Source: Clostridia bacterium
GTDB taxonomy: Bacteria; Bacillota; Clostridia; Oscillospirales; CAG-272
NCBI GenBank assembly: GCA_017547755.1
Contig: JAFYOX010000009.1
Coordinates: 5,949-69,948, forward strand
DNA length: 64,000 nt
Direction: 5' to 3'
In this document: positions 1 through 59,206 of the stretch, piece by piece
How the letters are laid out: every line of letters begins with the position of its first letter
How positions within the stretch are numbered: the first letter of the stretch is position 1
Made by a program: the position numbers and the translations under genes
The notes under the pieces: generated by a model
What the model saw: only the letters and a program-made list of their open reading frames with translations
Told to the model about the DNA's origin: nothing
Databases searched by the model: none

Positions 1-1207
1 ACGTTTCACCCTTGACGATATCCTCCGCAAACGCCATGCAGGTCGGTGCGCCGCAGGAGCCGCAGTCGAGCTTCGGAAGACCTTCCGTAATGGACTCGAT
101 ATCGGCCATCATACGGAGAGCCGTCTGACGGTCTTCGGAGAGGAGATTGTAGGGATTGTATTCCACTTCGTTTTCATCGTAATATTCGTCCGGGATATAT
201 TCGCTGACCGGGCGATTCGGCGAAACCGGAAGATACCGCTTGAGGATCTGGAGTCTCGCCTGAGCAATGTACGGATTTGCAACCGTCATCGCGCCGCCGA
301 CGCAGCCGCCGGAGCAGGCGTTGAGTTCCACAAAATCAAGGCTGGTGATATCTTCGTTGTCGATCTGATCGAGAACGCGAATGCAGTTCTCGATGCCGGA
401 TGCGGCGAGATACCGTTCGTTGAAGATCGCCGTGGATTCCCCGCCGGTCGATGCCCAGCCGATCCCGACCATGCCGGATTCGGTGGACTCCAGGGGTTCG
501 TCCTGACGCCGCTTCATTTTATCGATGAGTTCAAAGTACACGTCGCGCACCGAAATGGTGGCATCGATATAATTCCGCTCACCGGCGAAATCGTTCTTCA
601 CGTAGCTGACCTTTGCGGGACAGGGGGAGATGAAGAAGATGCCGATATCCTCATCGCTCAGTTCCGGATGTTCCCTCTTGGCCTTTTCGCGCGCAAGATG
701 CGCTGCGATATCGACCGGCGGCAGGATCGGCATGATGTTCTCACAAAGCATCGGATAGTTCATGCTGATCAGGCGCGTGATTGCGGGGCAGGCAGAGCTG
801 ATCACGGGTTTGGGGATATTCTTCCGTTTTATGTACAGCCGTGTGTACGCGGAAACAAGTTCGGCGGCACAGGCGACCTCAAAGACATCGTCGAAGCCCA
901 TATCGCGGAGACCGCGGATAATGTAGCCGATATTGTCCATGTTGTCGAACTGACCGTACAGAGACGGAGCGGGAAGCGCAACGGTATATTTGTAATCGTT
1001 TATGCACGACAGGGGGTCATGCGTAGCTTTTTTTGCTTTGTACGGACAGACTTTGATACACTCTCCGCAGTCGATACAGCGAGCGGAAGAGATCACAGCA
1101 TGTCCGTCGCGTATACGAATCGCTTCGGTCGGGCAGCGCTTCAGGCAGGTAGTACAGCCCTTGCACTTGCTCACATCCAGCGAGACCGAATGTTTGTAAT
1201 CCTTCAT
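1..1207 (-). CDS. [FeFe]-hydrogenase-like Fe-S protein of the sensory (HydS-like) type; C-terminus runs off the window
   Basis: Absent from the ORF track because it leaves the window. Minus-strand ATG at 1207-1205 is preceded by GGAGGA (complement of 1211-1216). My translation starts MKDYKHSVSLDVSKCKGCTTCLKRCPTEAIRIRDGHAVISSARCIDCGECIKVCP, which carries two 4Fe-4S ferredoxin motifs. It continues with H-cluster-like motifs ISSACPA, ISPCPAK and ELNACSGGCVGG, then a distal CGSCGAPTC motif. The canonical TSCCP cysteine is Ala, as in sensory hydrogenases. Confidence 0.7.
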   Translation of the reverse strand, partial: MKDYKHSVSLDVSKCKGCTTCLKRCPTEAIRIRDGHAVISSARCIDCGECIKVCPYKAKKATHDPLSCINDYKYTVALPAPSLYGQFDNMDNIGYIIRGLRDMGFDDVFEVACAAELVSAYTRLYIKRKNIPKPVISSACPAITRLISMNYPMLCENIMPILPPVDIAAHLAREKAKREHPELSDEDIGIFFISPCPAKVSYVKNDFAGERNYIDATISVRDVYFELIDKMKRRQDEPLESTESGMVGIGWASTGGESTAIFNERYLAASGIENCIRVLDQIDNEDITSLDFVELNACSGGCVGGAMTVANPYIAQARLQILKRYLPVSPNRPVSEYIPDEYYDENEVEYNPYNLLSEDRQTALRMMADIESITEGLPKLDCGSCGAPTCMAFAEDIVKGET

Positions 1208-1308
1208 AAGTCCTCCGTGCTGAGATTGAGATTTTTTTCCAAACCCTTTCCAAAAACCTTTTAATCAGGGAATTGGACTGAGTTCGGCTGACACCGTCGG
1301 CTTTTCTC

Positions 1309-1737
1309 TCAGCTGTTCAGCGCGATTTTCATGGTGATCGTCGTACCGACGCCCACCGTGGTGTCAATTTCCATGGAATCGGTGTATTTTTTCATGTTCG
1401 GAAGTCCCATGCCGGCGCCGAATCCGAGTGCGCGGATACTTTCTCTCGCAGTGGAGTAGCCTTCCTGCATCGCCAGACTTACATCCGGGATGCCGGGGCC
1501 GGTATCCTTGAGCACGATCGTGATAAAGTCGTCGTCCACAGTTACATCCGCATCTCCGCCGTTGGCATGGATGACCATATTGATTTCCCCTTCGTACATG
1601 GCAATGGAAACGCGGCGGATGACATCGGGGGGAAATCCGAGCTGGCGGAGCTTTTTCTTTACGACCACGGACGCTTCGCCCGCGGAAGAAAAGTTCTCTC
1701 CGTCTACGTCGAAATGAAAATTAATGGGTTCAGACAT
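1309..1737 (-). CDS. HATPase_c-type ATP-binding protein (anti-sigma-factor-like Ser/Thr kinase)
   Basis: The ORF 1309..1800 contains DTGPGIP and GFGAGMGLPNMKKY, the G1/G2 boxes of the GHKL ATPase fold. The start is placed at the internal ATG 1737 because GGGGGA lies 5 nt upstream; this gives an 8-nt overlap with the upstream gene. Confidence 0.75.
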   Translation of the reverse strand: MSEPINFHFDVDGENFSSAGEASVVVKKKLRQLGFPPDVIRRVSIAMYEGEINMVIHANGGDADVTVDDDFITIVLKDTGPGIPDVSLAMQEGYSTARESIRALGFGAGMGLPNMKKYTDSMEIDTTVGVGTTITMKIALNS

Positions 1738-2089
1738 GAGCATCCCCCAGTTTTCCGCCGAGACCGCCTTCATACAGACGTCCGCAGGCTTCAAAAGCAC
1801 GCAGAGACGAACGCATGACTACGAGACCGAAGTCTCTTGCAAGCTCGAGCATGGCTTCGCTCGGTTCCTTGTTGCGGACGAATACGATGCAGACCATATC
1901 CATCATGTTGGCAGTACGGATGACCTGCGGGTTGACAAGCCCGGTCAGAAGCACCCCCTGATCCTTGACGTAAGCCAGTACATCGCTCATCATATCGCTG
2001 CAGCAGGCGGACGCGACATCATGTTCCATGAGTTCTTCGCCGCACAGCACTTCAGCACCGAGCAAATCTTTAATTTCACATATTTTCAT
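1730..2089 (-). CDS. DRTGG-domain protein
   Basis: The ORF 1730..2113 reads MKICEIKDLLGAEVLCGEE...VLLTGLVNPQVIRTA, which is DRTGG-like. The start is placed at ATG 2089, behind GGTGGG. Confidence 0.65.
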   Translation of the reverse strand: MKICEIKDLLGAEVLCGEELMEHDVASACCSDMMSDVLAYVKDQGVLLTGLVNPQVIRTANMMDMVCIVFVRNKEPSEAMLELARDFGLVVMRSSLRAFEACGRLYEGGLGGKLGDAHV

Positions 2090-2159
2090 ATTACCCACCA
2101 ATCTGCCGCACATACGGCAGGAAAATCATGTTTGAACGTGAGTGATCCGTATATCTGAA

Positions 2160-2654
2160 TTACTGATACTTCTTGAGAATGCCTTCGAGCATGTTGGGTT
2201 CAAGACGGCCGTAAACGTCTTCGCCGATGGTCAGTACGGGAGCAAGACCGCACGCACCGATACATCTGGTTGCGTCAAGGCTGAACTTGAGGTCTTCGGT
2301 GATACCGCCGTTGCCGATGCCGAGAAGAGTTTCGAGCTTTTCCATAAGGATACCGGAGCCCTTAACGTAGCAGGCAGTACCAAGACATACAGCTACCGGA
2401 TGAGCACCCTTCGGATTGAGAAGGAACTGTGCATAGAAGGTAACTACGCCGAATACTTCGGAGTACGGAACATCCAGACCTGCAGCGATGTGACGCTGTA
2501 CTTCTTCCGGAAGGTAACCGTAAATGTCCTGTGCCTTCTGCAGAACAGGCATGAGAGCGCCGGGCTGTCCCTTGTATTCAGCAATCAGTGCATCAAGAGC
2601 AGCGAGCTGTTCCGCTGTACCGTTGAAAGCAACGGTGGTCAGTGCTTTTTTCAT
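2160..2654 (-). CDS. NuoE/HydC-type [2Fe-2S] thioredoxin-like ferredoxin
   Basis: Cluster-binding motifs CLGTACYVKG and CIGACGLAPV are present. AGGAGG RBS. Confidence 0.85.
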   Translation of the reverse strand: MKKALTTVAFNGTAEQLAALDALIAEYKGQPGALMPVLQKAQDIYGYLPEEVQRHIAAGLDVPYSEVFGVVTFYAQFLLNPKGAHPVAVCLGTACYVKGSGILMEKLETLLGIGNGGITEDLKFSLDATRCIGACGLAPVLTIGEDVYGRLEPNMLEGILKKYQ

Positions 2655-2762
2655 AGAGCAAATGTCCTCCTGAGAGTTTTGTTGTATTTAAAAATTTTGC
2701 CAGCAAATTTACGGGATGGTTCTTCCGCGGAAAGATTTCCGCGGAAGTTTTCACCCAAAAAA

Positions 2763-3602
2763 TCATTCCTCGCAGAACTTTACGACAGCGTCTGCCGCAC
2801 CTTCGAGGTAGTCGTTTTCCATCAGTTCGATCACGCCGTGGTCGATGAGGGAAGCGAGGCGTTCGTCGATCGGCATTCTCGCAAGAAGCGGGATATCGTA
2901 CTTCGCACACACTTCTTCCGCCTTGGACTTGCCGAATACATGGAGTTCGCGGCCGCAGTCGGGACACTTCACATAAGACATGTTTTCAACAAGACCGATG
3001 ACCGGGATGTTCATGAGGTTTGCCATGTTGACCGCCTTGCCGACGATCATGGAAACGAGATCCTGAGGAGTGGTGACAATTACAATACCATCCAGCTTGA
3101 TGGACTGGAATACCGTCAGCGGAACGTCGCCGGTTCCCGGAGGCATATCGATGAACATATAGTCCACATCGCCCCAGACAACATCGGTCCAGAACTGCTT
3201 TACGGTTCCCGCGATAACGGGACCTCTCCATACAACGGGACGGGTTTCTTCTTCAAGAAGAAGGTTGACCGAGATCATCTTGATGCCGGTCTTGGTTTCC
3301 AGGGGCATCAGACCGTCGCCGGTCGAGAGAATATCTCCCTTGGTGCCGAATGCCTTCGGAATGGACGGACCGGTCACGTCAGCATCCAGGATCGCGCACT
3401 TGTAGTCACGTCTCTGCATAACGGTCGTGAGCATGGAAGTCACGATGGACTTACCAACGCCGCCCTTACCGGAAACAATCCCTATGACGTGCTTCACGTG
3501 AGAATCCTTGTGGGGAGCTTCGAACGTAGGACCGCTCTTGCGGGAAGAACAGTTCGACGAGCACGTGGAACAGTCATGGGTGCATTCTTTGTTTTCAGCC
3601 AT
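2763..3602 (-). CDS. Mrp/NBP35/ApbC-family Fe-S cluster carrier ATPase
   Basis: Deviant Walker A GKGGVGKS is followed by the CPDCG motif. The N-terminus is Cys-rich (CTHDCSTCSSNC). Confidence 0.9.
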   Translation of the reverse strand: MAENKECTHDCSTCSSNCSSRKSGPTFEAPHKDSHVKHVIGIVSGKGGVGKSIVTSMLTTVMQRRDYKCAILDADVTGPSIPKAFGTKGDILSTGDGLMPLETKTGIKMISVNLLLEEETRPVVWRGPVIAGTVKQFWTDVVWGDVDYMFIDMPPGTGDVPLTVFQSIKLDGIVIVTTPQDLVSMIVGKAVNMANLMNIPVIGLVENMSYVKCPDCGRELHVFGKSKAEEVCAKYDIPLLARMPIDERLASLIDHGVIELMENDYLEGAADAVVKFCEE

Positions 3603-3839
3603 AACAATCTATATCCTTTCTGAATATCTTAACGCCTCAGAGCGGTATTCCGCACAGAATATATAATTTTGGTAATATATATTATTTTTGGTCGGGGTAT
3701 TCGCCTTTGGGTATCACAAATATTATATAACAAATTGCTTCAAATTACAATACCTAAGGCCGAGAATAATACTTCATTCGCCGCATTTTTTTCACAAAAA
3801 TGCAGCAGACGCCAAAAAATCCGCCATTGGCACAAAAAT

Positions 3840-3866
3840 ACGGGCAGGTAAATCTTACCTGCCCGT
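3840..3866 (-). terminator. Intrinsic terminator downstream of the P-type ATPase-like gene
   Basis: Hairpin ACGGGCAGGTA-aatct-TACCTGCCCGT is followed on the minus strand by ATTTTTGTG. Confidence 0.7.
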
Positions 3867-3873
3867 ACCGGGT

Positions 3874-9828: not shown

Positions 9829-9890
9829 GGGGGAAACCTTTTTTAAGGAAAGGGTTTCCCCCGAACCCCTTTCCAGAACCTTTTTATACC
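9829..9890 (-). repeat. GGGGAAAC-palindrome plus conserved flank (family member); likely terminator of the 9922..11166 gene
   Basis: Minus strand reads TATAAAAAGGTTCTGGAAAGGGGTTC followed by GGGGGAAACCCTTTCCTTAAAAAAGGTTTCCCCC. Confidence 0.8.
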
Positions 9891-15496: not shown

Positions 15497-15600
15497 CTAA
15501 GGACTAATGGTGAAGGGTGAATGACTATTCCCATTCATTCCTTCTGTCCGCCGACGGACAAATCCGGAACAGTCATTCACCATTAGTTCTTAGTCCTTAG
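15497..15600. repeat. About 104-bp imperfect inverted repeat between ruvC and the methyltransferase gene
   Basis: The left arm CTAAGGACTAATGGTGAAGGGTGAATGACT (15497-15526) pairs with the right arm AGTCATTCACCATTAGTTCTTAGTCCTTAG (15571-15600). An inner GTCCG/CGGAC hairpin lies at 15546-15559. Confidence 0.8.
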
Positions 15601-15603
15601 TTT

Positions 15604-16317: not shown

Positions 16318-16600
16318 AATAGCGATGACGGAGAGCGTACAGGCGGAAGATCCCCAGAGAAAGCGGCACCGGAAAAATCCGGAAACGGTGCGAGCCGCTG
16401 ATCCAATTCCCGATACGGTAGCTCCCAAGCTGAAAGAAAGAAAGCGGTTTTCCGTGAGTAGAATCTTTCCGTAACTGCCCCGTAAACGGCATAGAACTTG
16501 TCAGAGTTCGAGAGAGGCAGCCTATCTTTTGCGGCTGCAATTTGAGTGGTACCGCGGACATTCCTGTTCGTCTCAAAGATTTCTTTGGGGCGTTTTTTTA
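16318..16600 (+). promoter_or_regulatory. T-box riboswitch leader (tRNA-sensing transcription attenuator)
   Basis: Stem I elements are present: GCGATGA (K-turn side), CAGAGAAAGCGGC (AG box) and GGTGCGAGCCGC (distal loop). The T-box sequence AATTTGAGTGGTACCGCGG lies at 16539-16557. An antiterminator GAG/UGGUACC-bulge/GCGGAC...GUUCGU/CUC competes with the terminator CGTCTCAAAG-attt-CTTTGGGGCG (16569-16592), which is followed by TTTTTTTATTT. Confidence 0.85.
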
Positions 16601-16651
16601 TTTCATAAAATTACGTTCCGACAAAATCTCTATATAGATCTGGAGTTTATA

Positions 16652-18955
16652 ATGAAAAGCAATATTACCGCGCTGGAATTCAAAATCCACGAAATGGCCG
16701 CCCGTATTGCGGAACTTCGTGAAATCGAAGGATTCAGCACTGCCGAAATGGCTGCTAAGACCGGTATTACCGAAGCAGAATACATCGAATGCGAAAGCGG
16801 ACGCCTGAATCTGACCTTCGCGTTCATCTATCGCTGCGCGCTGGCGTTCAACGTCGATGTCACCGACATCATCGAAGGGAAAAGCCCGACGCTTGCCGGA
16901 TACACCGTTACCCGTGCCGGAAACGGTCAGAAGATCGAACAGGCGCACGGTCTGACCTACTTCAACCTCGCTTCTTCCTTCAAAAACCGTATTGCCGAAC
17001 CGCTGTATGTCGTTGCCGAATACAACGAGACCGCGGAACGCTCCGACATTGAACTGACCACCCACGACGGTCAGGAATGCGACATCGTCATTTCCGGGAC
17101 CCTGAAGGTACAGGTCGGTGAACACAGCGAGATCCTGAAGCCGGGCGACAGCATCTACTACGACAGCTCGATCCCGCACGGCATGGTCGCCGTCGAAGGT
17201 GCGGACTGTCTCTTCTACGCGATCGTTCTCAATCCCGCCGGAGAAGCGGAAGACGAACGTGAAGTCGAAGTTACGGCGGCAAGACCCTCCATCGTTGCAA
17301 CCACGGACAAATCGAAATATCTCTACAAGAAATACATCGAGACCAAAAAGGATGCCAACGGCACTCCCGTTGAAATCAAGATCACCGGCGAAGACAAATT
17401 CAACTTTGCCTTTGACATCATCGACGTGCTCGGCACCGAAAAACCGGATAAGCTCGCCATGCTCCATGTTGCGAACGACGGCGTGACCGAAAAGCGCATC
17501 ACCTTCCACGATCTCAAGCGTGCGTCCGCACAGTGCGCGAACTACTTCAAGTCGCTCGGCATCAGGAAAGGCGACCGCGTCATGCTCATCCTGAAGCGTC
17601 ACTACCAGTACTGGTTCGCCATGCTCGGTCTGAACAAGCTGGGCGCGATCGCGATCCCCGCACCGAACCAGCTCCTCGTGCATGACCTTGAATACCGCTT
17701 CAACTCCGCCGGCGTTTCCGCGATCCTCTGCACCGCGGACGGCGACACCGCGCATCAGGTCGACATGGCTGCCGAAAAGTGTGACTGCCTCAGGACGAAG
17801 ATCATCGTAAACGGCGAACGCGAAGGCTGGCGCAGCTTCGACGAAGAATACAACCTCTTCAGCGGCAAGTTCGAACGCACCGACGACAGCCCGTGCGGCA
17901 ATGATCCGCTTCTCATGTTCTTCACCTCCGGTACGACCGGTTACCCGAAGATCGCAATGCACAACCACAAGTATCCGCTCGGCCACTTCCATACCGCGAA
18001 GTATTGGCACTGCGTGGATTCCTCCGACACCGGTCTGCACTTCACCATTTCCGATACCGGCTGGGCGAAGTCCATGTGGGGCAAGATGTACGGTCAGTGG
18101 ATCTGCGAAGCGGCGATCTTTGTCTACGACTTCGACCGCTTCGACGCGGCAAAGATCCTGCCGATGATCGGCAAGCACCGGATCACGACGTTCTGCGCAC
18201 CGCCGACCATGTATCGTATGCTCATCAAGGAAGACCTGTCGAAGTACGACTTCTCCTCCCTCAAGCACGCGACCACCGCAGGCGAAGCGCTCAACCCGGA
18301 AGTTTACCGAAAATTCGAAGAAATCACGGGACTCCAGATCATGGAAGGCTTCGGTCAGTCCGAAACGACCTGCATGATCGGCAACCTGACCGGCGCGCCG
18401 CATAAGCTCGGCTCCATGGGCAGACCGTGTCCTCTCTATGATATCCACCTCATCGACGCGGACGGCAACGAAACCGCCGACGGTGAAACCGGCGAAATCG
18501 TGGTCAACGTTGCTGACGGCGCACCGTGCGGCCTCTTCACCGGCTACTACAACGACGAAGCGAAGACCGCCGAAGTATGGCACGACGGCTACTACCACAC
18601 CGGCGACACCGCATGGCGTGACGAAGACGGCTTCCTTTGGTACGTCGGCCGCGTAGACGACGTCATCAAGTCCTCCGGCTACCGCATCGGGCCGTTCGAA
18701 ATCGAAAACGTCATCATGGAACTCCCCTACGTTGTGGAATGCGGCGTTTCCCCGGAACCGGACGAAATCCGCGGACAGGTCGTCAAGGCTTCCATCGTCC
18801 TCACCAAGGGCACCGAACCGACCGAAGAACTCAAAAAGAAAATCCAGAACTACGTCAAGCAGAACACCGCTCCCTACAAATATCCGAGAATCATCGTCTT
18901 CCGCGATGAACTCCCGAAAACCACCAGCGGCAAGATCATGCGCAACAAGTTATAA
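16652..18955 (+). CDS. Fusion protein: XRE-family HTH plus cupin domain fused to an AMP-forming (medium/short-chain) acyl-CoA synthetase
   Basis: ATG 16652 lies behind GGAG. The N-terminus has an HTH (FSTAEMAAKTGITEAEYIECESG) and a cupin (GDSIYYDSSIPHGM). The C-terminal part has adenylation motifs FFTSGTTGYPK, YHTGD, SSGYRIGPFEIE and PKTTSGKIMR. Confidence 0.9.
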   Translation: MKSNITALEFKIHEMAARIAELREIEGFSTAEMAAKTGITEAEYIECESGRLNLTFAFIYRCALAFNVDVTDIIEGKSPTLAGYTVTRAGNGQKIEQAHGLTYFNLASSFKNRIAEPLYVVAEYNETAERSDIELTTHDGQECDIVISGTLKVQVGEHSEILKPGDSIYYDSSIPHGMVAVEGADCLFYAIVLNPAGEAEDEREVEVTAARPSIVATTDKSKYLYKKYIETKKDANGTPVEIKITGEDKFNFAFDIIDVLGTEKPDKLAMLHVANDGVTEKRITFHDLKRASAQCANYFKSLGIRKGDRVMLILKRHYQYWFAMLGLNKLGAIAIPAPNQLLVHDLEYRFNSAGVSAILCTADGDTAHQVDMAAEKCDCLRTKIIVNGEREGWRSFDEEYNLFSGKFERTDDSPCGNDPLLMFFTSGTTGYPKIAMHNHKYPLGHFHTAKYWHCVDSSDTGLHFTISDTGWAKSMWGKMYGQWICEAAIFVYDFDRFDAAKILPMIGKHRITTFCAPPTMYRMLIKEDLSKYDFSSLKHATTAGEALNPEVYRKFEEITGLQIMEGFGQSETTCMIGNLTGAPHKLGSMGRPCPLYDIHLIDADGNETADGETGEIVVNVADGAPCGLFTGYYNDEAKTAEVWHDGYYHTGDTAWRDEDGFLWYVGRVDDVIKSSGYRIGPFEIENVIMELPYVVECGVSPEPDEIRGQVVKASIVLTKGTEPTEELKKKIQNYVKQNTAPYKYPRIIVFRDELPKTTSGKIMRNKL

Positions 18956-18966
18956 AATATGCTTTT

Positions 18967-19191
18967 GCGGGGAAAAACTTTTTGAAAAAAGTTTTTCCCC
19001 GCACTCCTTTTCAAAAACTTTTATACTATATGGGCAGACAAAAAAAGTGCAGATTTGAAGGAATAAAACGGCTGTAAGCCTTACAGAAATTTTATTCCTT
19101 CAAATCTGCACTTTCTATGTATATTCTTTTCGTTTAAAAGTTTTTGAAGAGGGGTCCGGGGAGGAACTTTTTTCAAAAAGTTCCTCCCCGG
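18967..19191. repeat. Composite nested palindromic element, copy 1, between convergent genes
   Basis: Palindrome A is at 18967-19002 (GCGGGGAAAAACTTTTT/AAAAAGTTTTTCCCCGC), followed by the flank CCTTTTCAAAAACTTTTA. The central hairpin has arms 19044-19068 and 19090-19114 (25 bp, AAAGTGCAGATTTGAAGGAATAAAA) with an inner CTGTAA/TTACAG pair. The inverted flank TAAAAGTTTTTGAAGAGGGG follows, then palindrome C at 19156-19191. Confidence 0.9.
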
Positions 19192-19206
19192 GAAATACTA
19201 TTCTCA

Positions 19207-20775
19207 TCAATCAAAATTCACGCCGTAGTCGATGGATTTGCCGTCGGGGCCGGTGACGGTGTAGTAGAGGACGTTGCCGGTTGCGTTTACGCGGATGCCT
19301 TCGAGCTGACCGATGTAGATCGTCTGGGCATTGCCGTTCTGGAAGATCATGACAAGACGGTAGTCCGAAGCGCTGCCGCCGTACAGACCTTTTCCGTAGA
19401 GGATGGTGCAGCGTTCCGCTTCATAGTTATAGAGAATTTCCGCGCCCGCTTTCGCGTCGCTGACTGCGGTACTGTATGCGCTGTTCGTTCCCGCAGAAGC
19501 GGCCGGCGAAGTATAGATCGGAACGGACGTGCTCTTGTTGAGGTTCGAGAGTTCCGTCAGACCGCTGGCTTCCAGGATCACGGAATCCTGCATACCCGCA
19601 AGGAATTTCACGTCGTATATGGAAGAGAGATCGATTTTTTCATCAAAATAGAACGCATAAGTGGTGTATTCATCGCCGGAAGCATCCGTGTGTTCCGCAT
19701 ACCAGAGCTGCGTGACCGGGATCCGGTTTCCGTTGATGTAAAGGTATGCCAGACTGTTGATCGCGTAATATTTATCCGCAATGTCGTTGACTGCCTTGCC
19801 GTTGATGCCGACTGCCGCATTGTCCAGCCAGCCGCGCGCGATGCTGAGGGATTCATAGCCGCATCCCTTGTAGAGACGGAAGGACAGGCAGTTCGATTCC
19901 AGTTCTACATTGGTCGCCAGACTGAGCATGCACGCACTGTCGACCGTTACGCTGCCGTTCGCAACCGTAAAGTCTGCGCCGATACCGCTGATGCCGGTGA
20001 TGTTCTGTGCCTTTTTCGAACCGGGATAGAGGCTGAGCTTATTGGAAGAAGTCTGCGCGGTGATATTTCCGACGACGGTGGAAGAAGACGTATTTCCGGT
20101 CGAAGAAGGCGCGGAAGAAGGCTGCTGAACCGCTCCTGCCTTGACTCGCACCGACGGATCGATCATGCGCATGACCACCGCGGAGATTTCACTCCGCTTT
20201 ACCGCGGATTCCGGCTGAATATTTTTGTGTTCGTCGCCGGTCATCAGTCCCCAGCGGTACATCCGGTAAACCGCTCCGGCATACCACGCCTCCGTGTTCA
20301 CATCCGGCAGAACGCCGAACGCCGCCGTGTTGATCTCATCCATATTCCCTTTCGCGGAAATGAGCGCACGGGAGAAAAGAACCGCTACCTGTCCGCGCGT
20401 CGCCGGTGCATTGTAGTCCGGATACACTTCGGTTGCAATGCCGTTGGTGGTCGCGTAATCCACATAACCGTCGTACCAGTTGGACGTGGAGGACGGGATA
20501 TTGGACGCCGCGCCGGTGGAGATCAGCTGATGGCAGGATGCCGCCAGTTTGATCGTCTGGGCAATGGTCAGAGTCGCGTCGGGTTCAAAAGAAGAGGCAC
20601 TCGTTCCGCTGATCAGTCCGAGCGAATATGCGGACGCCACTTCGTCGTAATACCACGCGTTCGCCGCTACATCCGAAAATTCACCGTTGTACGAACGCTG
20701 TGCCGTATATGCTCCCGCCGGCGTCACAAGGAAAAGCGCAGCCAGCGCGGAGGCAAGAATTTTTCTGCATTTCAT
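19207..20775 (-). CDS. SLH-domain cell-surface protein
   Basis: A signal peptide (MKCRKILASALAALFLVTPAGA) is followed by SLH-like repeats (FSDVAANAWYYDEVASAYSLGLISGTS..., and EAWYAGAVYRMYRWGLMTGD). Confidence 0.8.
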   Translation of the reverse strand: MKCRKILASALAALFLVTPAGAYTAQRSYNGEFSDVAANAWYYDEVASAYSLGLISGTSASSFEPDATLTIAQTIKLAASCHQLISTGAASNIPSSTSNWYDGYVDYATTNGIATEVYPDYNAPATRGQVAVLFSRALISAKGNMDEINTAAFGVLPDVNTEAWYAGAVYRMYRWGLMTGDEHKNIQPESAVKRSEISAVVMRMIDPSVRVKAGAVQQPSSAPSSTGNTSSSTVVGNITAQTSSNKLSLYPGSKKAQNITGISGIGADFTVANGSVTVDSACMLSLATNVELESNCLSFRLYKGCGYESLSIARGWLDNAAVGINGKAVNDIADKYYAINSLAYLYINGNRIPVTQLWYAEHTDASGDEYTTYAFYFDEKIDLSSIYDVKFLAGMQDSVILEASGLTELSNLNKSTSVPIYTSPAASAGTNSAYSTAVSDAKAGAEILYNYEAERCTILYGKGLYGGSASDYRLVMIFQNGNAQTIYIGQLEGIRVNATGNVLYYTVTGPDGKSIDYGVNFD

Positions 20776-20978: not shown

Positions 20979-21851
20979 TTAACCGCGGAAGGTGAAGGGG
21001 CTGAGGAGCTTGGTGAAGATGCTGAAGGTGGGGATTTCTTCAAGGATCACAGGATACTTGGAAACTTCTTCTTCAACGATTTCTTCTTCAACTTCTTCAA
21101 CAACTTCTTCTTCGATAGCTGCAGCTTCTTCAACTACTACTTCTTCAGCGATTTCTTCAACTGCTTCTTCAACAACTTCTTCTTCAACTACTTCGTAGTT
21201 AGCAAGAAGATAATCGAGGATTTCCATAGCAACTGCATAGAAGCCTGCTTCGTCGATCGGGAAACCTGCTGCGTTGAGGAGTTCAACCATGAATGCAACG
21301 TCAAGGAGACCTGCTTCTTCAGCAACTGCGAATGCTTCAGCAACGCCTTCTTCGAGGGTTACGTTCAGGCTCTGGCAAACGAGAAGAGCGAAGCCAGCGG
21401 AGAATTCGGTGATTTCGTACTTTTCGATGGGAGCAGCAACTGCATATACAGCAGCAACAACTTCTTCTTCGGTAGTGGTTACGCCGAGTGCAGCGAGAAC
21501 AGCAACAACGGAAGCGGGGGTGATTTCGTTTTCACCGAAGAGAGCAGCAACTTCTTCAGCGGTAACGGTAAGACCCTGCGCAGCAGCAACAGCAGCGATG
21601 TGAGCAGGGGTAACGTCGATCGTCTTATCCATAACAACGATGTCGATTACCTGTTCTTCAGCAACTGCTTCTTCTTCAGCAGCTTCTTCAACGATCTGAC
21701 CTTCTTCTTCGGAAATAAGCATGATGCCTGCATCGTCTGCAGCGATTTCTTCGATTACCGCATCAACGGGAGCAGCTTCTTCCGCAAAAACAGCGGGAGT
21801 CATTGCAGCGCACATAAGAGCTGCAAGAACAAGAGAAATGATCTTTTTCAT
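20979..21851 (-). CDS. Secreted hyper-acidic E/V/A-rich protein (paralogue 1)
   Basis: Signal peptide MKKIISLVLAALMCAAMTPAVFAEEA, long EEVV/EEAV low-complexity tracts, and internal GLTVTAEEVAAL-type repeats. GGAGGA RBS. Confidence 0.8.
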   Translation of the reverse strand: MKKIISLVLAALMCAAMTPAVFAEEAAPVDAVIEEIAADDAGIMLISEEEGQIVEEAAEEEAVAEEQVIDIVVMDKTIDVTPAHIAAVAAAQGLTVTAEEVAALFGENEITPASVVAVLAALGVTTTEEEVVAAVYAVAAPIEKYEITEFSAGFALLVCQSLNVTLEEGVAEAFAVAEEAGLLDVAFMVELLNAAGFPIDEAGFYAVAMEILDYLLANYEVVEEEVVEEAVEEIAEEVVVEEAAAIEEEVVEEVEEEIVEEEVSKYPVILEEIPTFSIFTKLLSPFTFRG

Positions 21852-22020
21852 TTGTAAATATCCTCCATAAGTAAGATTGGGTACATTATATCACAAAATT
21901 TCGGAATTGTCACCACTTCCCGAATTTTTCTTTTTTTAATAAATGACAAAAATTGCATCCGAAATCTCCTGCGGAACAGCAAACTTCCCTATTGCTTCCT
22001 GCCGCATAAGTTTTTTCAAA

Positions 22021-22054
22021 AAAATCCCCTGCATACTGTATGCAGGGGATTTTT
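22021..22054 (-). terminator. Intrinsic terminator of the 22078..22692 gene
   Basis: AAAATCCCCTGCATA-ctg-TATGCAGGGGATTTT forms a hairpin with flanking A and T runs. Confidence 0.75.
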
Positions 22055-22077
22055 ACGTTTGAATTTTATTCAAAAAC

Positions 22078-22692
22078 TTATGCCTTGAGAGCAGCAGTAA
22101 GAGAACCGCCGTTGTTGTCGATAACTTCTGCAACAACATTCTTAACGGTCTTACGAACAGGAGCAAGGAAGGGGTCGTTAACGAGAGTAATTTCAACAGC
22201 TTCTTCAGCAGCAACTTCTTCAACTACTACTTCTTCAGCAACAGCTTCTTCAACTGCTACTTCTTCAGCAACAGCTTCTTCAACTGCTACTTCTTCAGCA
22301 ACAACTTCTTCAACTACTTCTTCAGTAGCCGGAGCGGGAACGAGAAGAGCGAGAACTGCAACAACAGCTTCGTCGGAAAGTTCAACGCCGTAAACCAGAG
22401 CAGCTGCCTTGAGAGTATCTGCGGTGATTTCAACGCCGGAAGCGAGGATTGCGGTTACCATTTCGGGAGTAAGGGTGATGCCGTATTCAGCAGCGAGAGC
22501 AACAACTGCTTCAACGTCAACAACTGCAGTTTCAACAACTGCTTCTTCAACAGCTGCTTCTTCAGCGGTTTCAGCGATTGCAACAACAGCTTCTTCAGCA
22601 ACGGTTTCAACAACTGCTTCGTCAGCGAAAACGGCAGGAGTCATAGCAGCGCACATAAGAGCTGCGAGGATGAGAGAAAGAGTCTTCTTCAT
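22078..22692 (-). CDS. Secreted hyper-acidic E/V/A-rich protein (paralogue 2)
   Basis: The start is placed at ATG 22692, behind GGAGGA. The signal peptide MKKTLSLILAALMCAAMTPAVFADEA is almost identical to that of paralogue 1. The protein also has GITLTPEMVTAIL-type repeats and AEEVAVEEAV tracts. Confidence 0.8.
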   Translation of the reverse strand: MKKTLSLILAALMCAAMTPAVFADEAVVETVAEEAVVAIAETAEEAAVEEAVVETAVVDVEAVVALAAEYGITLTPEMVTAILASGVEITADTLKAAALVYGVELSDEAVVAVLALLVPAPATEEVVEEVVAEEVAVEEAVAEEVAVEEAVAEEVVVEEVAAEEAVEITLVNDPFLAPVRKTVKNVVAEVIDNNGGSLTAALKA

Positions 22693-22855
22693 ATCGGATA
22701 ATCCTCCATATATAAGATTGAATTGAAATTCGGATGTATTATACCACAAACCTTTCCGTTTGTCACTATTTTCCGCCATTTTTCTTTTAGATATTCCTCA
22801 CAAAGTTTTTTGTAAAAAATCACCAAAAACCTTTCAATCTCCATCATATTGGAAA

Positions 22856-27668: not shown

Positions 27669-27704
27669 TCGGGGAAAACTTTTTTTCAAAAAAGTTTTCC
27701 CCGA
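27669..27704. repeat. GGGGAAAC-family palindrome; likely terminator of the 27720..28772 gene
   Basis: TCGGGGAAAACTTTTTTT/AAAAAAGTTTTCCCCGA. Confidence 0.8.
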
Positions 27705-27719: not shown

Positions 27720-28772
27720 TCAGATAAACGGTCTCCGGTCGAGGACGAGCTTCAGTGGACGTCCGGTGATGATTTCGCCGGGAAGCGCGCGCTGGAGTTC
27801 CGCGAGAACGCAGACGGTGCCGAAGAGGGCGTGCAGGTCGTTCATGCCTTCGTCGGCAGCGGGATCGAGTCCGTTCAGATAGGTCAGATGTTCGTCCGCG
27901 AATTCGCGCAGGCAGCGGCGGATGTCGTCAAACCGATACGCCGTCTGTCGGGATGCACGGTTGATCGCAAACACCCAGTCGATTTCCATAAAGCCGACTT
28001 CATGCGCGAAACGATCCGTCAGTCCGCGGTTGTCCCAGAGATGGATGCACGTGTCGATCAGCTTTTCCGGATACCGGAGCGGACGCTTCGCGTGTTCCAT
28101 ATTGAACATATAGTGGAACCATCCGTACAGGTGATGGCAGACCGGCGCGGCACTTTCAAAAATCTCCCGTTCAAACCGGTTTCCGCGGTCGTCGGCACGG
28201 TGTCCGATCGTTCCCGCCTTGCTCATGCCGTATTCGTCGTCCGTGTGTTCCCACAGCCAATCGAAATACCAGTCCTGCCATTCGAGGTCCGCCGCACCCG
28301 TCAGGAGCATCGCCGCATACACGCCAGCCCCCTGATGGGACTGCGGCCACGGATTTTCCACCCACAGCAGGGAGTCGAGTAAGGCATACAGCCCTTCCTT
28401 CGTCCGGTAGGGTGCCAGAAATTCGCACGGTTTCTCCGACTGCGGGACGGCGTCGAACAGTTCCAGTGCCGCAATGCAGTGCGCGGTCGTGTGGATCGGA
28501 TGGTGCGTCCGTTCGCGGAAACTGCCGTCCGGATGGCGGAGTCCGAGAATGGAGTTCATCAGTTCATCTCTGGCGGGGTCGCCGTACGCCGGAAAACGGC
28601 CGATGGTGTACAGGATATTCGCCGCGTCCGCACAGCCGTATTCGTTGATGCCGAGCTGACGGGAGCCGTTTTTGTCCCACAGCCAGCGGCAGTAACCTCC
28701 GTCCGCAAGGCGATGGCTTTCCACAACGCCGTAAATTTTTCCGACAAGTTCGTCAATGTGGTGGATCTTCAT
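27720..28772 (-). CDS. Hypothetical protein, possibly an alpha/alpha-toroid (prenyltransferase/terpene-cyclase-like repeat) fold
   Basis: The start ATG 28772 lies behind AAGGAGGA, which overlaps the stop of the upstream activase. Repeat-like motifs ADGGYCRW, YGCADAANILYTIG, HPDGSFRE and HTTAHCIAALELF are present. The fold assignment is tentative. Confidence 0.6.
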   Translation of the reverse strand: MKIHHIDELVGKIYGVVESHRLADGGYCRWLWDKNGSRQLGINEYGCADAANILYTIGRFPAYGDPARDELMNSILGLRHPDGSFRERTHHPIHTTAHCIAALELFDAVPQSEKPCEFLAPYRTKEGLYALLDSLLWVENPWPQSHQGAGVYAAMLLTGAADLEWQDWYFDWLWEHTDDEYGMSKAGTIGHRADDRGNRFEREIFESAAPVCHHLYGWFHYMFNMEHAKRPLRYPEKLIDTCIHLWDNRGLTDRFAHEVGFMEIDWVFAINRASRQTAYRFDDIRRCLREFADEHLTYLNGLDPAADEGMNDLHALFGTVCVLAELQRALPGEIITGRPLKLVLDRRPFI

Positions 28773-28786
28773 GGATCTGTCCTCCT

Positions 28787-29617
28787 TTATCTGATCACAG
28801 CATGGCTGAAAAAGTTCAGGATTCGTTCGTCCGCGCGGTATTCGTCCGCGGACAGCGGGTATGTCTTCCCGACCGACGCGTATTTCGCGCCGGCCATGGC
28901 ATTGTACGGCAGAAGTTCCGTCTCCGCATCTCCGACAAATTCCCCGATCGCCGCAAGATTTTCGTCCGTGTCGGTGATGCCCGGGATCAGCGGTACGCGG
29001 ATAATGCACTTTTTGCCGGATTCATCAAGAAGCCAGCGCAGATTCTTTTTGATATTGTCGTTCGGCACGCCGGTGTAACGGATATGATCTTCCCTGTCAG
29101 ACAGTTTCATATCCGCGAACACCAGGGAAACGTGCTCCAGCGTCTTCCGGTATACGTCATGTGCGGCAAACGACGAGGTCTCCATCGCCGTGTGGATCCC
29201 CTCTCCGGCCAAAATTCCGAGCACTTCCCCGACAAATGCGTGCTGCATCAGCGGTTCGCCGCCGGAAAAAGTCACGCCGCCGCCCGACATTTCGTAAACA
29301 TCCCGGTCGCGCAGCAGACGCTTTGCCAGTTCCGCGGACGTCATCACACTGCCGCAGACGGACAGCGCGCCGTTCGGGCAGACGTGCAGACAGCGTCCGT
29401 ACGGCTGACAGTCTTCGTGACTGCACGAAGCCGCACATTTTCCGCAGCGCGTACATTTCCCCTGTTTTACATAAAGTTCCGGTTCGGGAGACAGCCCTTC
29501 CGGATTATGGCACCACAGGCACCGCAGCGGACAGCCTTTCATGAAGACCGTCGTCCGGATGCCGGGGCCGTCGTTCAGCGCAAAGCCTTTGATATCGAAA
29601 ATAGTTCCGTTATACAT
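28787..29617 (-). CDS. Glycyl-radical-enzyme activating protein (radical SAM, PFL-AE family with a ferredoxin-like insert)
   Basis: Contains GPGIRTTVFMKGCPLRCLWCHNPE (CX3CX2C), an extra Cys cluster CTRCGKCAASC...CLHVCPNGAL, and GGVTFSGGEP. The start is placed at the internal ATG 29617. Confidence 0.85.
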   Translation of the reverse strand: MYNGTIFDIKGFALNDGPGIRTTVFMKGCPLRCLWCHNPEGLSPEPELYVKQGKCTRCGKCAASCSHEDCQPYGRCLHVCPNGALSVCGSVMTSAELAKRLLRDRDVYEMSGGGVTFSGGEPLMQHAFVGEVLGILAGEGIHTAMETSSFAAHDVYRKTLEHVSLVFADMKLSDREDHIRYTGVPNDNIKKNLRWLLDESGKKCIIRVPLIPGITDTDENLAAIGEFVGDAETELLPYNAMAGAKYASVGKTYPLSADEYRADERILNFFSHAVIR

Positions 29618-33746: not shown

Positions 33747-33803
33747 ATATCCTCCAAGCAAGTGAAGAACATACGCTCTGCACTCACCTTGTATCTACAA
33801 TAG

Positions 33804-33881
33804 TATAAAGTTTTTTGGAAATGGGGTTCCGACTTGTGTAGCAAGTCGGGGAAAACCTTTTGTTCACAAAAGGTTTTCCCC
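33804..33881 (+). repeat. GGGGAAAC-family element (flank, extra hairpin, palindrome) inside the dnaK-dnaJ spacer
   Basis: The flank TATAAAGTTTTTTGGAAATGGGGTTC is followed by the hairpin CGACTTG-tgtag-CAAGTCG and then the palindrome GGGGAAAACCTTTTG/CAAAAGGTTTTCCCC. Confidence 0.8.
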
Positions 33882-33899
33882 AAGAACACTTATTTTCAA

Positions 33900-42676: not shown

Positions 42677-43789
<1,113 letters not shown>

Positions 43790-44035
43790 TAATAAATCCT
43801 CCTTGGATGTTTCTATCCATAGTTATTTAAGCAGCGGACATATCGTCCGCTGAGGACGTACAAATGTCCATGTACTATTTACCGTGGTATATTGTATCAA
43901 ATCACGCCAGTTTTTTAAAGAGTTTTTTTTACCGAAAATTGATTTATTCCTTTGTATATTCTGTACATTTTTTCTTCCGCCTCTCCGGGGGTCCGGACGG
44001 ATGACAAAGGATGCTTTTCTAATTTTATTAGAAGC

Positions 44036-51221: not shown

Positions 51222-52685
51222 ATGAACACAATGAAAAGACGTCTTTCGCTGATTCTGGCTCTTCTCATGATGCTTTCCGCGGCGTCCTGTTCCGAAAGCA
51301 CCGAAAACAGCGCGGCAGATACTTCGACCGCCAACACCGCTTCCGCAGAAGTGACCGTCAATACCGAAACGCCCGTGGAAGACGACGGCAAGACCCACTA
51401 CGCGGACGAGATCGCGGCTGTGGACTACGACGGCTGGACGCTCCACATCGCAAACGACGGTCTGAGCGCGGAATACTTCAGCGGATTCACCATGGAAGAA
51501 CTCACCGGTGACGCATTCAACGACGCGATCTACGACCGCAACGTGCGCGTTTCCGAAAAGTTCAACGTTACCATCGAAGAAAACAACGGCGGTTCCGTCA
51601 ACCTCATCAAGAACTCCGTTACCGCAGGTACCGGCGACGTCGGCTTCGGCTACGTTCTCTTCTACAGCTGCATGGGTCTGATCTCCCAGAATTACGCCAA
51701 GGCGGTCAGCGATATGCCGGTCTTTGACTTCTCCAAGCCCTACTGGGACCGCGGTTCCCAGGAAACCCTGACCATCGGCGGCAAGCTCTTCTACGGTCAC
51801 TGCGACATCAGCTTCGACCATTACGAAAGCATGGCTCTGCTCTTCTACAACGGCGACCTTCTCGCAGACAACAGCATCGCCGAAACTCCCTACGAACTGT
51901 ACACCTCCGGCAAGTGGACGCTCGACGCGATGTACGACATGATGACCAAGGTCGCACGCGACGAAAACGGTGACGGTATCATGGATGCCGCACACGACAC
52001 CTTCGGCTGGTCGGGCCGTGAATTTGAATATCTCCCGAGCCTTTACTCTTCCAACCTCCGCATCGTTCAGTACGACGCCGCTGCTGACACCTACAAGATG
52101 AACATCGTGGACGACGGCGTTATGGCAGTCGGCGATATGCTGAACAAGATCATCAACGACAAGTCCCTCTCTCTCCCCGGCAGAAACGACGAAACCCGTA
52201 ACCTCTTCAAGGAAGGCGGCGTACTCTTCTACAGCCGTCTGATGGGCGACTTCCGCAACCTCCGCGACAAGGAAGACGACTACGGTATCATCTGCTATCC
52301 GGCTCTCGAAGAAAATACCGACGGCATGGTCTACGTCCAGAACCCCTTCACCGTCATGATCCCGTCCGACTGTTCCGATGACGAACGTCTCGCGACCCTC
52401 ATCGAAGCGCTCGCAGCCGACACGTACGACAACGTCCTCGATATCTACATCGAAAAGGCCGTTATCGGTAAGGGCGCACGCGACATCGAAAGCGCAAACC
52501 TCCTCCGCGACTTCATCCAGAAGCGTGCATACGATATGTCCTACGCATTCGACGTCTTCGAAGCAATCAAGGCATACAACAACGCAATCCCCGGTGCGAA
52601 CTACGCATCCGCTTCTTCCCGTTCCGAAAAGGCATTCAACAAGAATGTAGAAAAAGCCCTCAAGGCTCTGGGTCTCGGCGAATAA
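51222..52685 (+). CDS. Extracellular solute-binding-type lipoprotein (function tentative)
   Basis: Lipobox LSAASCS and an AAGGAG RBS. It is a paralogue of the partial gene at 63059. Confidence 0.6.
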   Translation: MNTMKRRLSLILALLMMLSAASCSESTENSAADTSTANTASAEVTVNTETPVEDDGKTHYADEIAAVDYDGWTLHIANDGLSAEYFSGFTMEELTGDAFNDAIYDRNVRVSEKFNVTIEENNGGSVNLIKNSVTAGTGDVGFGYVLFYSCMGLISQNYAKAVSDMPVFDFSKPYWDRGSQETLTIGGKLFYGHCDISFDHYESMALLFYNGDLLADNSIAETPYELYTSGKWTLDAMYDMMTKVARDENGDGIMDAAHDTFGWSGREFEYLPSLYSSNLRIVQYDAAADTYKMNIVDDGVMAVGDMLNKIINDKSLSLPGRNDETRNLFKEGGVLFYSRLMGDFRNLRDKEDDYGIICYPALEENTDGMVYVQNPFTVMIPSDCSDDERLATLIEALAADTYDNVLDIYIEKAVIGKGARDIESANLLRDFIQKRAYDMSYAFDVFEAIKAYNNAIPGANYASASSRSEKAFNKNVEKALKALGLGE

Positions 52686-52710
52686 TCGAATAATATAAAA
52701 TGAATTTTCT

Positions 52711-52930
52711 TGGGGAACCCTTTTTTAAGGAAAAAGGGTTCCCCAAACCTCTCCTAAAAACCTTTTCAAACAAAAAGATAAATAAAGAAAGTGCAGATTT
52801 GGAATACCGAACCGTCCGTCCTCTTTACAGCGGTTTTGTACTCCAGATCTGCACTTTCTTTGTTATATGAATCGTTTAAAGTTTTTGGAAAGGGTTCGGG
52901 GAAACCTTTTTGCAAAAAGGTTTCCCCGAA
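52711..52930. repeat. Composite nested palindromic element, copy 2, between convergent genes
   Basis: Palindrome A is at 52711-52745 (TGGGGAACCCTTTTT/AAAAAGGGTTCCCCA), followed by the flank CTAAAAACCTTTTCAAAC. The central hairpin is at 52787-52858 (GAAAGTGCAGATTTGGAATAC...GTACTCCAGATCTGCACTTTC). The inverted flank TTTAAAGTTTTTGGAAAGGGTT follows, then palindrome C at 52895-52930. Confidence 0.9.
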
Positions 52931-57018: not shown

Positions 57019-57043
57019 ATTATTATACAGGTACGCTCCTTTC

Positions 57044-59194: not shown

Positions 59195-59206
59195 AGATTT
59201 TCTCCA

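Follow-up and report, generated by a model that had tools for sequence, protein, structure and literature searches.

The stretch of DNA considered here (hereafter "the window", 64,000 nucleotides in all) is a core chromosomal region of a member of the Clostridia, with a G+C content of ~55%, whose genes include those for an RsgI-like anti-sigma factor and for SLH proteins as well as hrcA-grpE-dnaK-dnaJ, nrdD, ruvC and tex; look-ups in sequencing runs found its sequence in ruminant and other gut metagenomes. The subject of this study is a nested palindromic composite present in the window in two full copies, the first of which (copy 1, 18966-19191) fills the whole spacer between an acyl-CoA synthetase gene (16529-18955, + strand) and a convergent SLH gene (19207-20775, - strand), and which appears to represent a previously undescribed repeat family of uncultured gut and rumen Clostridia.

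Taken as a whole, copy 1 is an inverted repeat of 123 nucleotides with 80% complementarity. It begins, 11 nucleotides past the stop codon of the acyl-CoA synthetase gene, with the left palindromic unit (PU; 18966-19003, + strand), whose perfect 18-bp arms, a purine 5′ arm GGGGAAAAACTTTTT and the 3′ arm AAAAAGTTTTTCCCC, are separated by the loop GA, and continues with a tail, CTCCTTTTCAAAAACTTTT (19004-19022, + strand), which is the mirror image of the 3′ arm of this PU and a candidate Hoogsteen third strand. Beyond an A-type linker (ATACTATATGGGCAG; 19023-19037, + strand) lies the central hairpin (19038-19120, no strand assigned), with a perfect 25-bp stem (19044-19068 paired with 19090-19114) having an A-rich run on its 5′ side and a pyrimidine-rich run on its 3′ side, and an apex (19069-19089) in which an asymmetric internal loop is combined with the mini-hairpin CTGTAAGCCTTACAG (CTGTAAG-CC-TTACAG). 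There follow a B-type linker (19121-19135, + strand; AAACGAAAAGAATAT when read on the - strand), the right tail (19136-19154, - strand; AAAAGTTTTTGAAGAGGGG, reading CCCCTCTTCAAAAACTTTT on the - strand), again the mirror of the 3′ arm of its own PU, and the right PU (GGGGAGGAAC type; 19156-19191, - strand), which has perfect 17-bp arms and ends 15 nucleotides before the stop codon of the SLH gene. All the parts of the nested symmetric composite recognised in a preliminary description made from the sequence alone, including the 25-bp central stem with a small hairpin in its loop, are present and in the order reported there.

The minimum free energy of copy 1 is -126.8 kcal/mol for the + strand and -122.4 kcal/mol for the - strand, shuffled sequences giving ~ -50 (z = -16 and -17.6, respectively), and on either strand a near-continuous single hairpin is predicted. 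The second copy mentioned in the same description proved to be equally real: in copy 2 (52710-52930) the parts follow one another as in copy 1, the two sequences being 82% identical. The left PU of copy 2 (GGGGAACCC type; 52710-52746, + strand) lies downstream of the gene at 51222-52685 (+ strand) and is followed by the left tail CCTCTCCTAAAAACCTTTT (52748-52766, + strand) and by the central hairpin (52781-52864, no strand assigned), the conserved stem base of which (52788-52801 with 52844-52857) carries an upper stem that is unlike that of copy 1 in sequence and yet retains its pairing; the right tail (52878-52894, - strand, where it reads CCCTTTCCAAAAACTTT) and the right PU (GGGGAAACC type; 52895-52930, - strand) complete the element at 14 nucleotides from the stop codon of the gene at 52945-57018 (- strand). 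In the window the motif AAAGTGCAGATYTG occurs only at the four central-stem arms of these two copies.

A palindromic pattern derived from the conserved stem base retrieved nine loci in three metagenome-assembled genomes (MAGs), namely Eubacteriales fecal_MAG_213 (JBGVOJ01), Clostridia RGIG1778 (JAFQFS01, from goat caecum) and Oscillospiraceae SIG618 (SVQN01), and a looser pattern applied to metagenome contigs added ~12 further true members. In all, 23 copies with a common architecture were found in the window, in these MAGs and in gut/rumen metagenome contigs (individual loci being designated below by L numbers), so that the element is not confined to the two copies from which it had been described. 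A full-text search of the literature with characteristic sequence strings returned no matching paper. Most of the 101 metagenome pattern matches were rejected as unrelated palindromes sharing only AAGTGCAGAT. A distinct and unrelated G+C-rich palindromic family, AAGTGCAGATCCCTCG...GCTCGGGATGAC...GTCATCCCGAGC...CGAGGGATCTGCACTT, found mostly in soil-type contigs (L012, L014, L017-L019, L027, L028, L030, L032, L035, L069, L071, L076, L079, L086, L091, L099 and L105), has only the outer AAGTGCAGAT in common with the element.

The order of the parts is the same in all 23 copies: a gene stop, 8-25 nucleotides, the outer palindrome, three nucleotides and a tail of the form CCCC-Y-core-C-A5-C-TTT, then, further inward, an A/T-rich linker of ~20 nucleotides, ACAAAG-AAAGTGCAGATYTG, a variable upper stem and the apex, the whole being mirrored on the other side. 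The building block is thus a unit of ~60 nucleotides consisting of a 15-bp hairpin whose 5′ arm has a purine-rich base (GGGG-R-core), a 3-nucleotide linker and a tail, and the full element consists of two such units, inverted tail-to-tail and joined by the A/T-rich linkers and the central hairpin. The latter is conserved in sequence at its base, the upper stem and the apical mini-hairpin being variable but paired in every copy; in the stem of the outer hairpin, changes on both sides (i.e., compensatory) are seen in 5 of the 11 predicted pairs. Simpler arrangements exist as well, such as a pair of units with a mini central hairpin of 10 bp (L008 540-735), a pair in which no more than a vestige of the centre is left (L104 3854-4004) and lone units followed by a canonical terminator (L001 5424, L008 5267 and L232).

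The palindromes fall into discrete types (AAAAAC, AGGAAC, AAACC, AAGAAAC and AGGGAC) which reappear across unrelated loci and different genomes, to the point that identical palindromes of 32 nucleotides, together with their matching tails, are found at unrelated loci of different genomes; this sharing of types indicates copying rather than the separate evolution of a terminator at each site. The abundance of the units points in the same direction. Indeed, in gut metagenome contigs the depth on 18964-19010 and 19152-19198 is ~870-3060, compared with 6-16 on the flanking gene, and over the whole units (18964-19022 and 19132-19190) it amounts to 60-200 times that of the single-copy flanks, in samples that mix species; furthermore, contig matches to copy 1 end sharply at ~18964/19022 and ~19132/19190 and continue into unrelated sequence. 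In DNA runs the central hairpin reaches ~3 times the depth of the flanks.

The stability of the element over time was followed by tracing the orthologues of the SLH gene into their own contigs and comparing what lies at their 3′ ends. A full composite is found in L104 (96% nucleotide identity) and at least one unit in L226 (86% amino acid identity), where the contig ends; in L227 (79% amino acid identity) a full composite is present, the acyl-CoA synthetase neighbour is kept and the central segment is inverted, and in L005 (RGIG1778; 78% nucleotide identity over 2.2 kb) there is a composite with both palindromes, the locus ending within the far one, and with swapped linkers. Among the remaining orthologues, L230 (77% amino acid identity) and L228 (75%) have only a canonical terminator, L231 (76%) has the same SLH/acyl-CoA synthetase junction with only ordinary terminators, L232 (74%) has one unit plus a canonical terminator, and L233 (64%) has only canonical terminators and neither unit nor composite, its spacer containing the T-box leader of the next gene. 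The composite at this junction is thus retained in relatives down to ~78% nucleotide identity. The inversion in L227 concerns both linkers and the hairpin (identity 0.79 in the inverted versus 0.74 in the direct orientation) and agrees with the orientation of the asymmetric apex and of both linker types; the linker swap of L005 is of the same kind but less clear. In a further orthologue, L229, the Illumina adapter AGATCGGAAGAGC appears soon after the SLH gene (3049-3110), the contig being chimeric from there.

A different kind of event is seen between ruvC and the methyltransferase gene, where L104, the 96% identical strain, has a centre-less pair of units (L104 3846-4013) and the window has instead (15510-15603) an unrelated, unique hairpin of ~95 nucleotides (-45.5 kcal/mol, z = -6.2); the swap of this spacer is exact, the flanks matching up to AAATAAA and again from AAAGGAG. 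On the other hand, in the orthologous pairs L004/L009 (83%) and L008/L063 (86%) the elements are kept in both members. On the whole, these sequence comparisons suggest an element that is retained by vertical descent for long periods and from time to time is gained, lost, degraded or inverted.

The most distinctive property of the unit concerns its tail. In the preliminary description the flanks of the central hairpin had been taken for inverted partners of each other; they are not only that, and the alignment of 40 units reveals that each flank follows its own palindrome, being the mirror image of the 3′ arm of its own hairpin, so that, when both are read 5′ to 3′, an A of the 5′ arm corresponds to a T of the tail and a G to a C. 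Approximately 17 arm types have a matching tail: the arm cores AAC, AAAC, AAAAAC and AAAAAAC are accompanied by the tail cores TTC, TTTC, TTTTC and TTTTTC, respectively, AAACC and AAAAACC by TT(T)CC and TTTTCC, AGGAAC by TCTTC and AAGAAAC by ATCTTC, and more distant units obey the same rule, combining, e.g., AGGTAC with TCCGC and AGGGTG with TCCCC. A caveat on this co-variation is the compression, in the tail, of the G runs of the arm.

In a permutation test over the 25 distinct arm/tail pairs the observed score is 6.48 and the shuffled mean 3.8, none of 20,000 permutations reaching the observed value, with a p-value that overstates independence since the arm-tail types are related by descent. 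The reversed, i.e., antiparallel, control scores 0.32 versus 6.48 for the parallel arrangement, and an antiparallel pairing of the tail with the 5′ arm, which fits only some types, was rejected. An internal C is found in the tail of all nine arms having an internal G versus only one of the 16 arms without it. The parallel column pair 8/45 is A-U in 12 sequences and G-C in 10, and the co-variation score of the parallel columns (0.502) exceeds that of shuffles (0.377 ± 0.041, 1 in 500 being as high) and that of all slid controls. In the pair analysis of the aligned units the tail has no Watson-Crick partner inside the unit. In four units an extra mini-hairpin is inserted exactly in the 3-nucleotide linker with the matching tail type retained, as would be expected of a linker acting as a loop. 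Templated copying generates repeats that are direct or inverted, and not mirror ones.

Two observations on related sequences may be added. The B-type linker after the central hairpin (19115-19135 in the window, and its equivalents; e.g., CTTTCTTTGT|CTGTTTTTTTCG) resembles a pyrimidine mirror of the 3′ base of the stem; a hairpin-plus-mirror-tail design was looked for here too, and no co-variation supports it for the central hairpin. More G+C-rich relatives of the hairpin-plus-mirror-tail unit occur in IMG/VR contigs filed as viral (three units in L189, at 2301, 4056 and 7610, L224 2259 and L185), an example being GGGGAGGATGTTTTT..AAAAACACCCTCCCC-GGA-CCCCTCCCCAAAAAC.

The succession of a purine arm, a pyrimidine arm, a loop and a mirror pyrimidine block on one strand is the textbook design of an intrastrand triplex of the pyrimidine motif. 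One strand of the unit has precisely this layout, with a loop of three nucleotides (e.g., GGGGAGGAA ... TTCCTCCCC-GGA-CCCCTCTTC), the other strand being purine-purine-pyrimidine; in the classification of triplex motifs of PMC4666352 these correspond to class III on the strand of the unit and to class I on the other. We tentatively propose, on the strength of the co-variation, that the tail may be kept by selection because it folds into the major groove of the hairpin as an intramolecular triple helix, a possibility that we regard as real though less likely than not. On the gene-sense strand a pyrimidine-motif triplex would form, in RNA or in single-stranded DNA, and on the opposite DNA strand a purine-motif triplex. 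If this were true, the co-variation would be evidence for a triple helix as a selected feature of a bacterial repeat element, and recognition of the element during its copying could rest on the triplex; the latter could also lock mRNA 3′ ends, as a bacterial counterpart of MALAT1 and PAN RNA, whose 3′ ends are protected by a triple helix.

The same features bear on another explanation, according to which the element is a site acting at the DNA level for a protein (one of the readings offered in the preliminary description) or for recombination, be it the target of an inverton-like invertase, a nucleoid or topology site, or an H-DNA or cruciform element whose non-B structure would affect replication or supercoiling at convergent junctions. 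The conservation in sequence of the 14-bp stem base, the in-phase recurrence of A5/T5 tracts and the opposite orientation of the central segment at orthologous loci would all suit such a site, and the homopyrimidine mirror repeat of each unit, of which the pair of blocks around GGA cited above is an example, is a classical H-DNA motif (PMC4666352). No recombinase gene, however, adjoins any of the copies examined; the conserved arms, being only 43 bp apart, are too close to bound an invertible segment of the conventional sort, and homologous recombination between the long inverted repeats suffices to explain occasional inversion. Moreover, convergent junctions are generally known to gather positive supercoiling, which disfavours the extrusion of cruciforms and H-DNA, and the location of all three triplex segments on one strand indicates a single-stranded fold. 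A DNA-level site is, in our judgement, very improbable.

A further possibility, raised in the preliminary description, is that of a structured small RNA locus, in which the central hairpin would be a stand-alone gene for a stable RNA of ~75-90 nucleotides, with a promoter in the A/T-rich linker and a 3′ end at the U-rich flank of the hairpin itself, and the outer palindromes would be merely the terminators of the neighbouring genes. The conserved stem base, the upper stem that varies and still pairs, and the TATACT or TATAAT-like hexamers often seen in the A-type linker are what such a gene would offer, and of the two strands the one that has ACAGCCGTTTTG on the 3′ side gives the better fold in 16 of 22 copies, a weak indication given that several orientations are ambiguous, the better folding being due to G.U pairs on this strand versus C.A mismatches on the other. 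Nevertheless, neither the tail nor the linker contains a -35/-10 pair conserved at a fixed spacing, the one weak promoter match (9/12) being inside the hairpin, and a promoter of ECF (extracytoplasmic function) type (GAAC...CG) was rejected for inconsistent spacing. Likewise rejected was a small peptide, the 15-codon open reading frame (ORF) that enters the hairpin in copy 1 (ATGGGCAGA...) not being conserved in the other copies.

RNA data were available as unstranded Logan contigs, which give neither the ends nor the strands of transcripts. In four metatranscriptome assemblies the contig depth is zero on 19048-19103 and 40-400 on the outer units, which is weak evidence inasmuch as the contigs have no strand assignment and hairpins are difficult to assemble; the transcript contigs containing the outer units read on beyond the tail. 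The centre is, furthermore, inverted relative to the flanking genes in L227 and shortened or absent in other members of the family. As to known RNA families, only two tRNAs in the whole window pass the Rfam gathering threshold, and a permissive search of the copy 1 region produced only microRNA models of the long-hairpin sort, far below threshold, so that no Rfam family was identified. Taken together, these results make a small RNA gene very unlikely and did not uphold the initial suggestion.

The position of the element with respect to the genes raises the question of its relationship to transcription termination. Where both flanks are available, the full composites lie between gene ends, one just outside each outer palindrome, and they lack any other terminator, the single units being followed by ordinary ones. 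The central hairpin has CUUUCUUUGU on its 3′ side and an A-rich 5′ side, and its stem is unusually long for an intrinsic terminator. The outer hairpins are followed by GNA-CCCC... and not by a U-run, and a terminator scan accepts only the left one of copy 1, owing to CTCCTTTTCA. Units occur also upstream of ribosome-binding sites and within a 5′ untranslated region, the latter case being that of the L008 composite with the 10-bp mini centre, which (within L008 480-780) is preceded by the terminator of a T-box leader and followed by the ribosome-binding site and ATG of a gene beginning MLDIKFLRDNPDV, probably serS.

These facts could be accommodated by supposing that a bidirectional terminator complex evolved in place at each convergent junction and was never mobile, the likeness of the copies reflecting the terminator style of the lineage. 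The distance of 8-25 nucleotides from the stop codons, the location of composites where relatives have canonical terminators and the A-rich and U-rich flanks of the central hairpin are in keeping with this view, which does not account, on the other hand, for the identity of palindromes and tails at unrelated loci and genomes, for the sharp borders of units so much more abundant than their flanks, for a junction that is wholly different between 96% identical strains, for units placed ahead of ribosome-binding sites and within a 5′ untranslated region, or for outer hairpins without an adjacent U-tract. We consider evolution in place unlikely. The remark made at the outset, that a terminator would not require so elaborate a structure, is correct; even so, wherever the composite is present it seems, to judge from the junctions compared, to stand in for ordinary terminators.

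The reading that we favour, and hold to be probable, is that the element, in these uncultured Clostridia of gut and rumen, is a non-autonomous, REPIN/BIME-like mosaic intergenic repeat, built of units with the potential to form an intrastrand triplex. The doublet of units would be, or would have been, propagated as single-stranded DNA by a trans-acting enzyme, e.g., of the RAYT/IS200-like kind, and single units and centre-less pairs would be its decay products. A doublet filling a junction would have taken over the role of terminator: transcription arriving from both sides would be halted or attenuated at the central hairpin, which is flanked by A-rich sequence 5′ and U-rich sequence 3′, and each of the two mRNAs would have its 3′ end shielded by an outer hairpin, possibly locked in place by its tail. 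The composites probably shape 3′-end formation and mRNA stability.

Several points weigh against this interpretation. No transposase or RAYT-like gene was detected in the 64-kb window by a Pfam scan of 46 ORFs, comprising most of the long ones, and neither the composite nor the central hairpin is bordered by a target-site duplication or a direct repeat. The two units of an element usually differ in type (copy 1, for instance, combines AAAAAC with AGGAAC), and the copies counted amount to only 2-4 exact matches per MAG and two full plus three partial elements in 64 kb. As regards function, the outer hairpins lack a neighbouring U-tract, their role as terminators or stabilisers is one that we infer, and the presence of the L008 composite within the 5′ untranslated region of serS means that the element cannot be an absolute terminator. 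As regards the triplex, four consecutive C+.G-C triples are unfavourable at neutral pH, to which the common descent of the arm-tail types, mentioned above, must be added. The suggestion that the element could be a mobile one resembling a miniature inverted-repeat transposable element (MITE) survives in part: its repetitive and mobile character is borne out by the many copies, loci and genomes, the recurring types, the graded partial forms and a presence that differs in relatives, the L231 junction being one that holds only ordinary terminators, but a classical MITE is disfavoured by the lack of target-site duplications, by ends that differ in type and by the lack of a linked transposase.

Besides the two full copies, the window contains partial forms of the element, which the preliminary description had not recognised. 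A third, partial element (33777-33890, - strand) lies at the dnaK/dnaJ junction; its PU (33848-33881) is separated from the tail (~33807-33830) by an extra mini-hairpin (33831-33847) located in the PU-tail linker, and after the tail come an A-type linker, a remnant of the central hairpin and then the ribosome-binding site of dnaJ. A single unit (9829-9885, + strand), made up of a PU (9829-9862) and a degenerate tail, is found between a DUF5711 gene and cvpA (both on the - strand), its PU adjoining the ribosome-binding site of cvpA, and a lone palindrome of the same type without a recognisable tail (27671-27702, no strand assigned) lies 17 nucleotides past the stop codon of the gene at 27720-29009 (- strand). 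The other large convergent gaps of the window (3624-3873, 15508-15603 and 43781-44035) contain ordinary or unrelated hairpins and no composite.

Two peculiarities of the neighbouring genes may be recorded. Long runs of a 15-nucleotide periodic repeat, CTTCTTCAACAACTTC, occupy 20979-22779 and 48366-48650 and, if the ORFs of the - strand are real, would encode acidic, low-complexity segments rich in E, V and A, in proteins without a Pfam match, the largest of them having an F5/8 type C domain. In the stretch 52945-60046 (- strand), the large protein beside copy 2 has a hydrazine-synthase-alpha middle domain and a PD40 repeat and is followed by proteins with cytochrome c/MauG-like and cytochrome c assembly domains, which is unusual for gut Clostridia.

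Repeat families of the REP/REPIN/BoxC type are well studied in Proteobacteria and barely described in Firmicutes and, to our knowledge, they are undescribed in the uncultured Clostridia predominant in rumen and gut communities. What is new in the present family is that the tail mirrors the 3′ arm of the hairpin and co-varies with the arm. The many hairpin variants, each with its matching mirror tail, constitute a natural test of in vivo selection for intrastrand triplexes, a question left open for E. coli BoxC/PIT. From a practical standpoint, the composites break metagenome assemblies and give rise to fold-back artefacts, and, since close strains differ in whether the element is present and in its orientation, it could be used as a marker for strain typing. 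In the MAG contig L004 (1-330) the first 174 nucleotides repeat, in reverse complement, what lies to the right of the element, which is a fold-back assembly artefact centred on the palindrome.

As to the known systems, the element shares with the MITEs, such as Correia of Neisseria, ERIC and RUP, the generally known attributes of being short and non-coding, with long inverted arms, a long RNA hairpin and a possible terminator activity, and is unlike them in that no target-site duplication was found and in that its terminal units differ from each other; we know of no autonomous insertion sequence related to it. The likeness to the BIME/RIP-RIB elements of E. coli goes further, since these too are, as is generally known, mosaics of alternating palindromic units of discrete types with conserved inter-unit motifs, located at gene 3′ ends and between convergent genes, but the central motif is here a long hairpin instead of an IHF site and there is no sequence similarity.

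A REPIN consists of two inverted REPs with a spacer that varies and yet always forms a hairpin, its singlets are remnants, and some REPINs have been co-opted as terminators (PMC3337134). In the same manner, all full copies of the element have two short palindromic units with their flanking sequences inverted around a spacer, which differs between copies and still pairs so that the whole folds back, and they are extragenic, are inherited vertically over long times and leave singlet remnants. The element is, however, larger (~225 bp compared with ~90-110 bp), and its two units are usually of different types, unlike the REPs of a Pseudomonas REPIN, which belong to the same group (PMC3337134). Its spacer stem base is conserved over 14-20 bp, each unit has a mirror tail and the host is a member of the Clostridia; moreover, unlike the RAYT-mobilised REPINs of Pseudomonas and Enterobacteria, it has no RAYT in the ORF scans of the window.

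The intrastrand-triplex repeats BoxC/PIT/TM_ECO were reportedly studied by Hoyne and Maher in 2000 and 2002. They are intergenic repeats of E. coli and other Proteobacteria which form triplexes in vitro, whose inverted pairs are always of two different types and which are linked with the rearrangement of loci between close strains (Holder et al. 2015, PMC4666352). The units of the element resemble them in being built of three consecutive blocks (two hairpin arms, a 3-nucleotide loop and a mirror of the second arm), in permitting a triplex on either strand, of the purine motif on one and of the pyrimidine motif on the other, in occurring singly or as inverted pairs and in being carried by loci that are rearranged between close strains. 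The sequences, on the other hand, are unrelated, with no match to the TM_ECO consensus CCCTCNCCC-N3-6-GGGNGAGGG-N3-GGGNGAGGG, and the first "loop" of the element is itself a paired A5/T5 extension of the stem; its hairpin is longer (15 bp) and passes from a purine tract to a T5 tract, so that a full-length triplex would have to alternate strands. Furthermore, the pairs enclose linkers and a large central hairpin, the units lie directly against gene ends and the triplex, demonstrated in vitro for BoxC/PIT, is here a prediction from sequence. With its inverted doublet folding around a variable spacer and its hairpins each followed by a mirror tail, the element is closer to REPIN/BIME and BoxC/PIT than to a classical MITE, and combines in one structure the designs of the REPIN and of BoxC/PIT.

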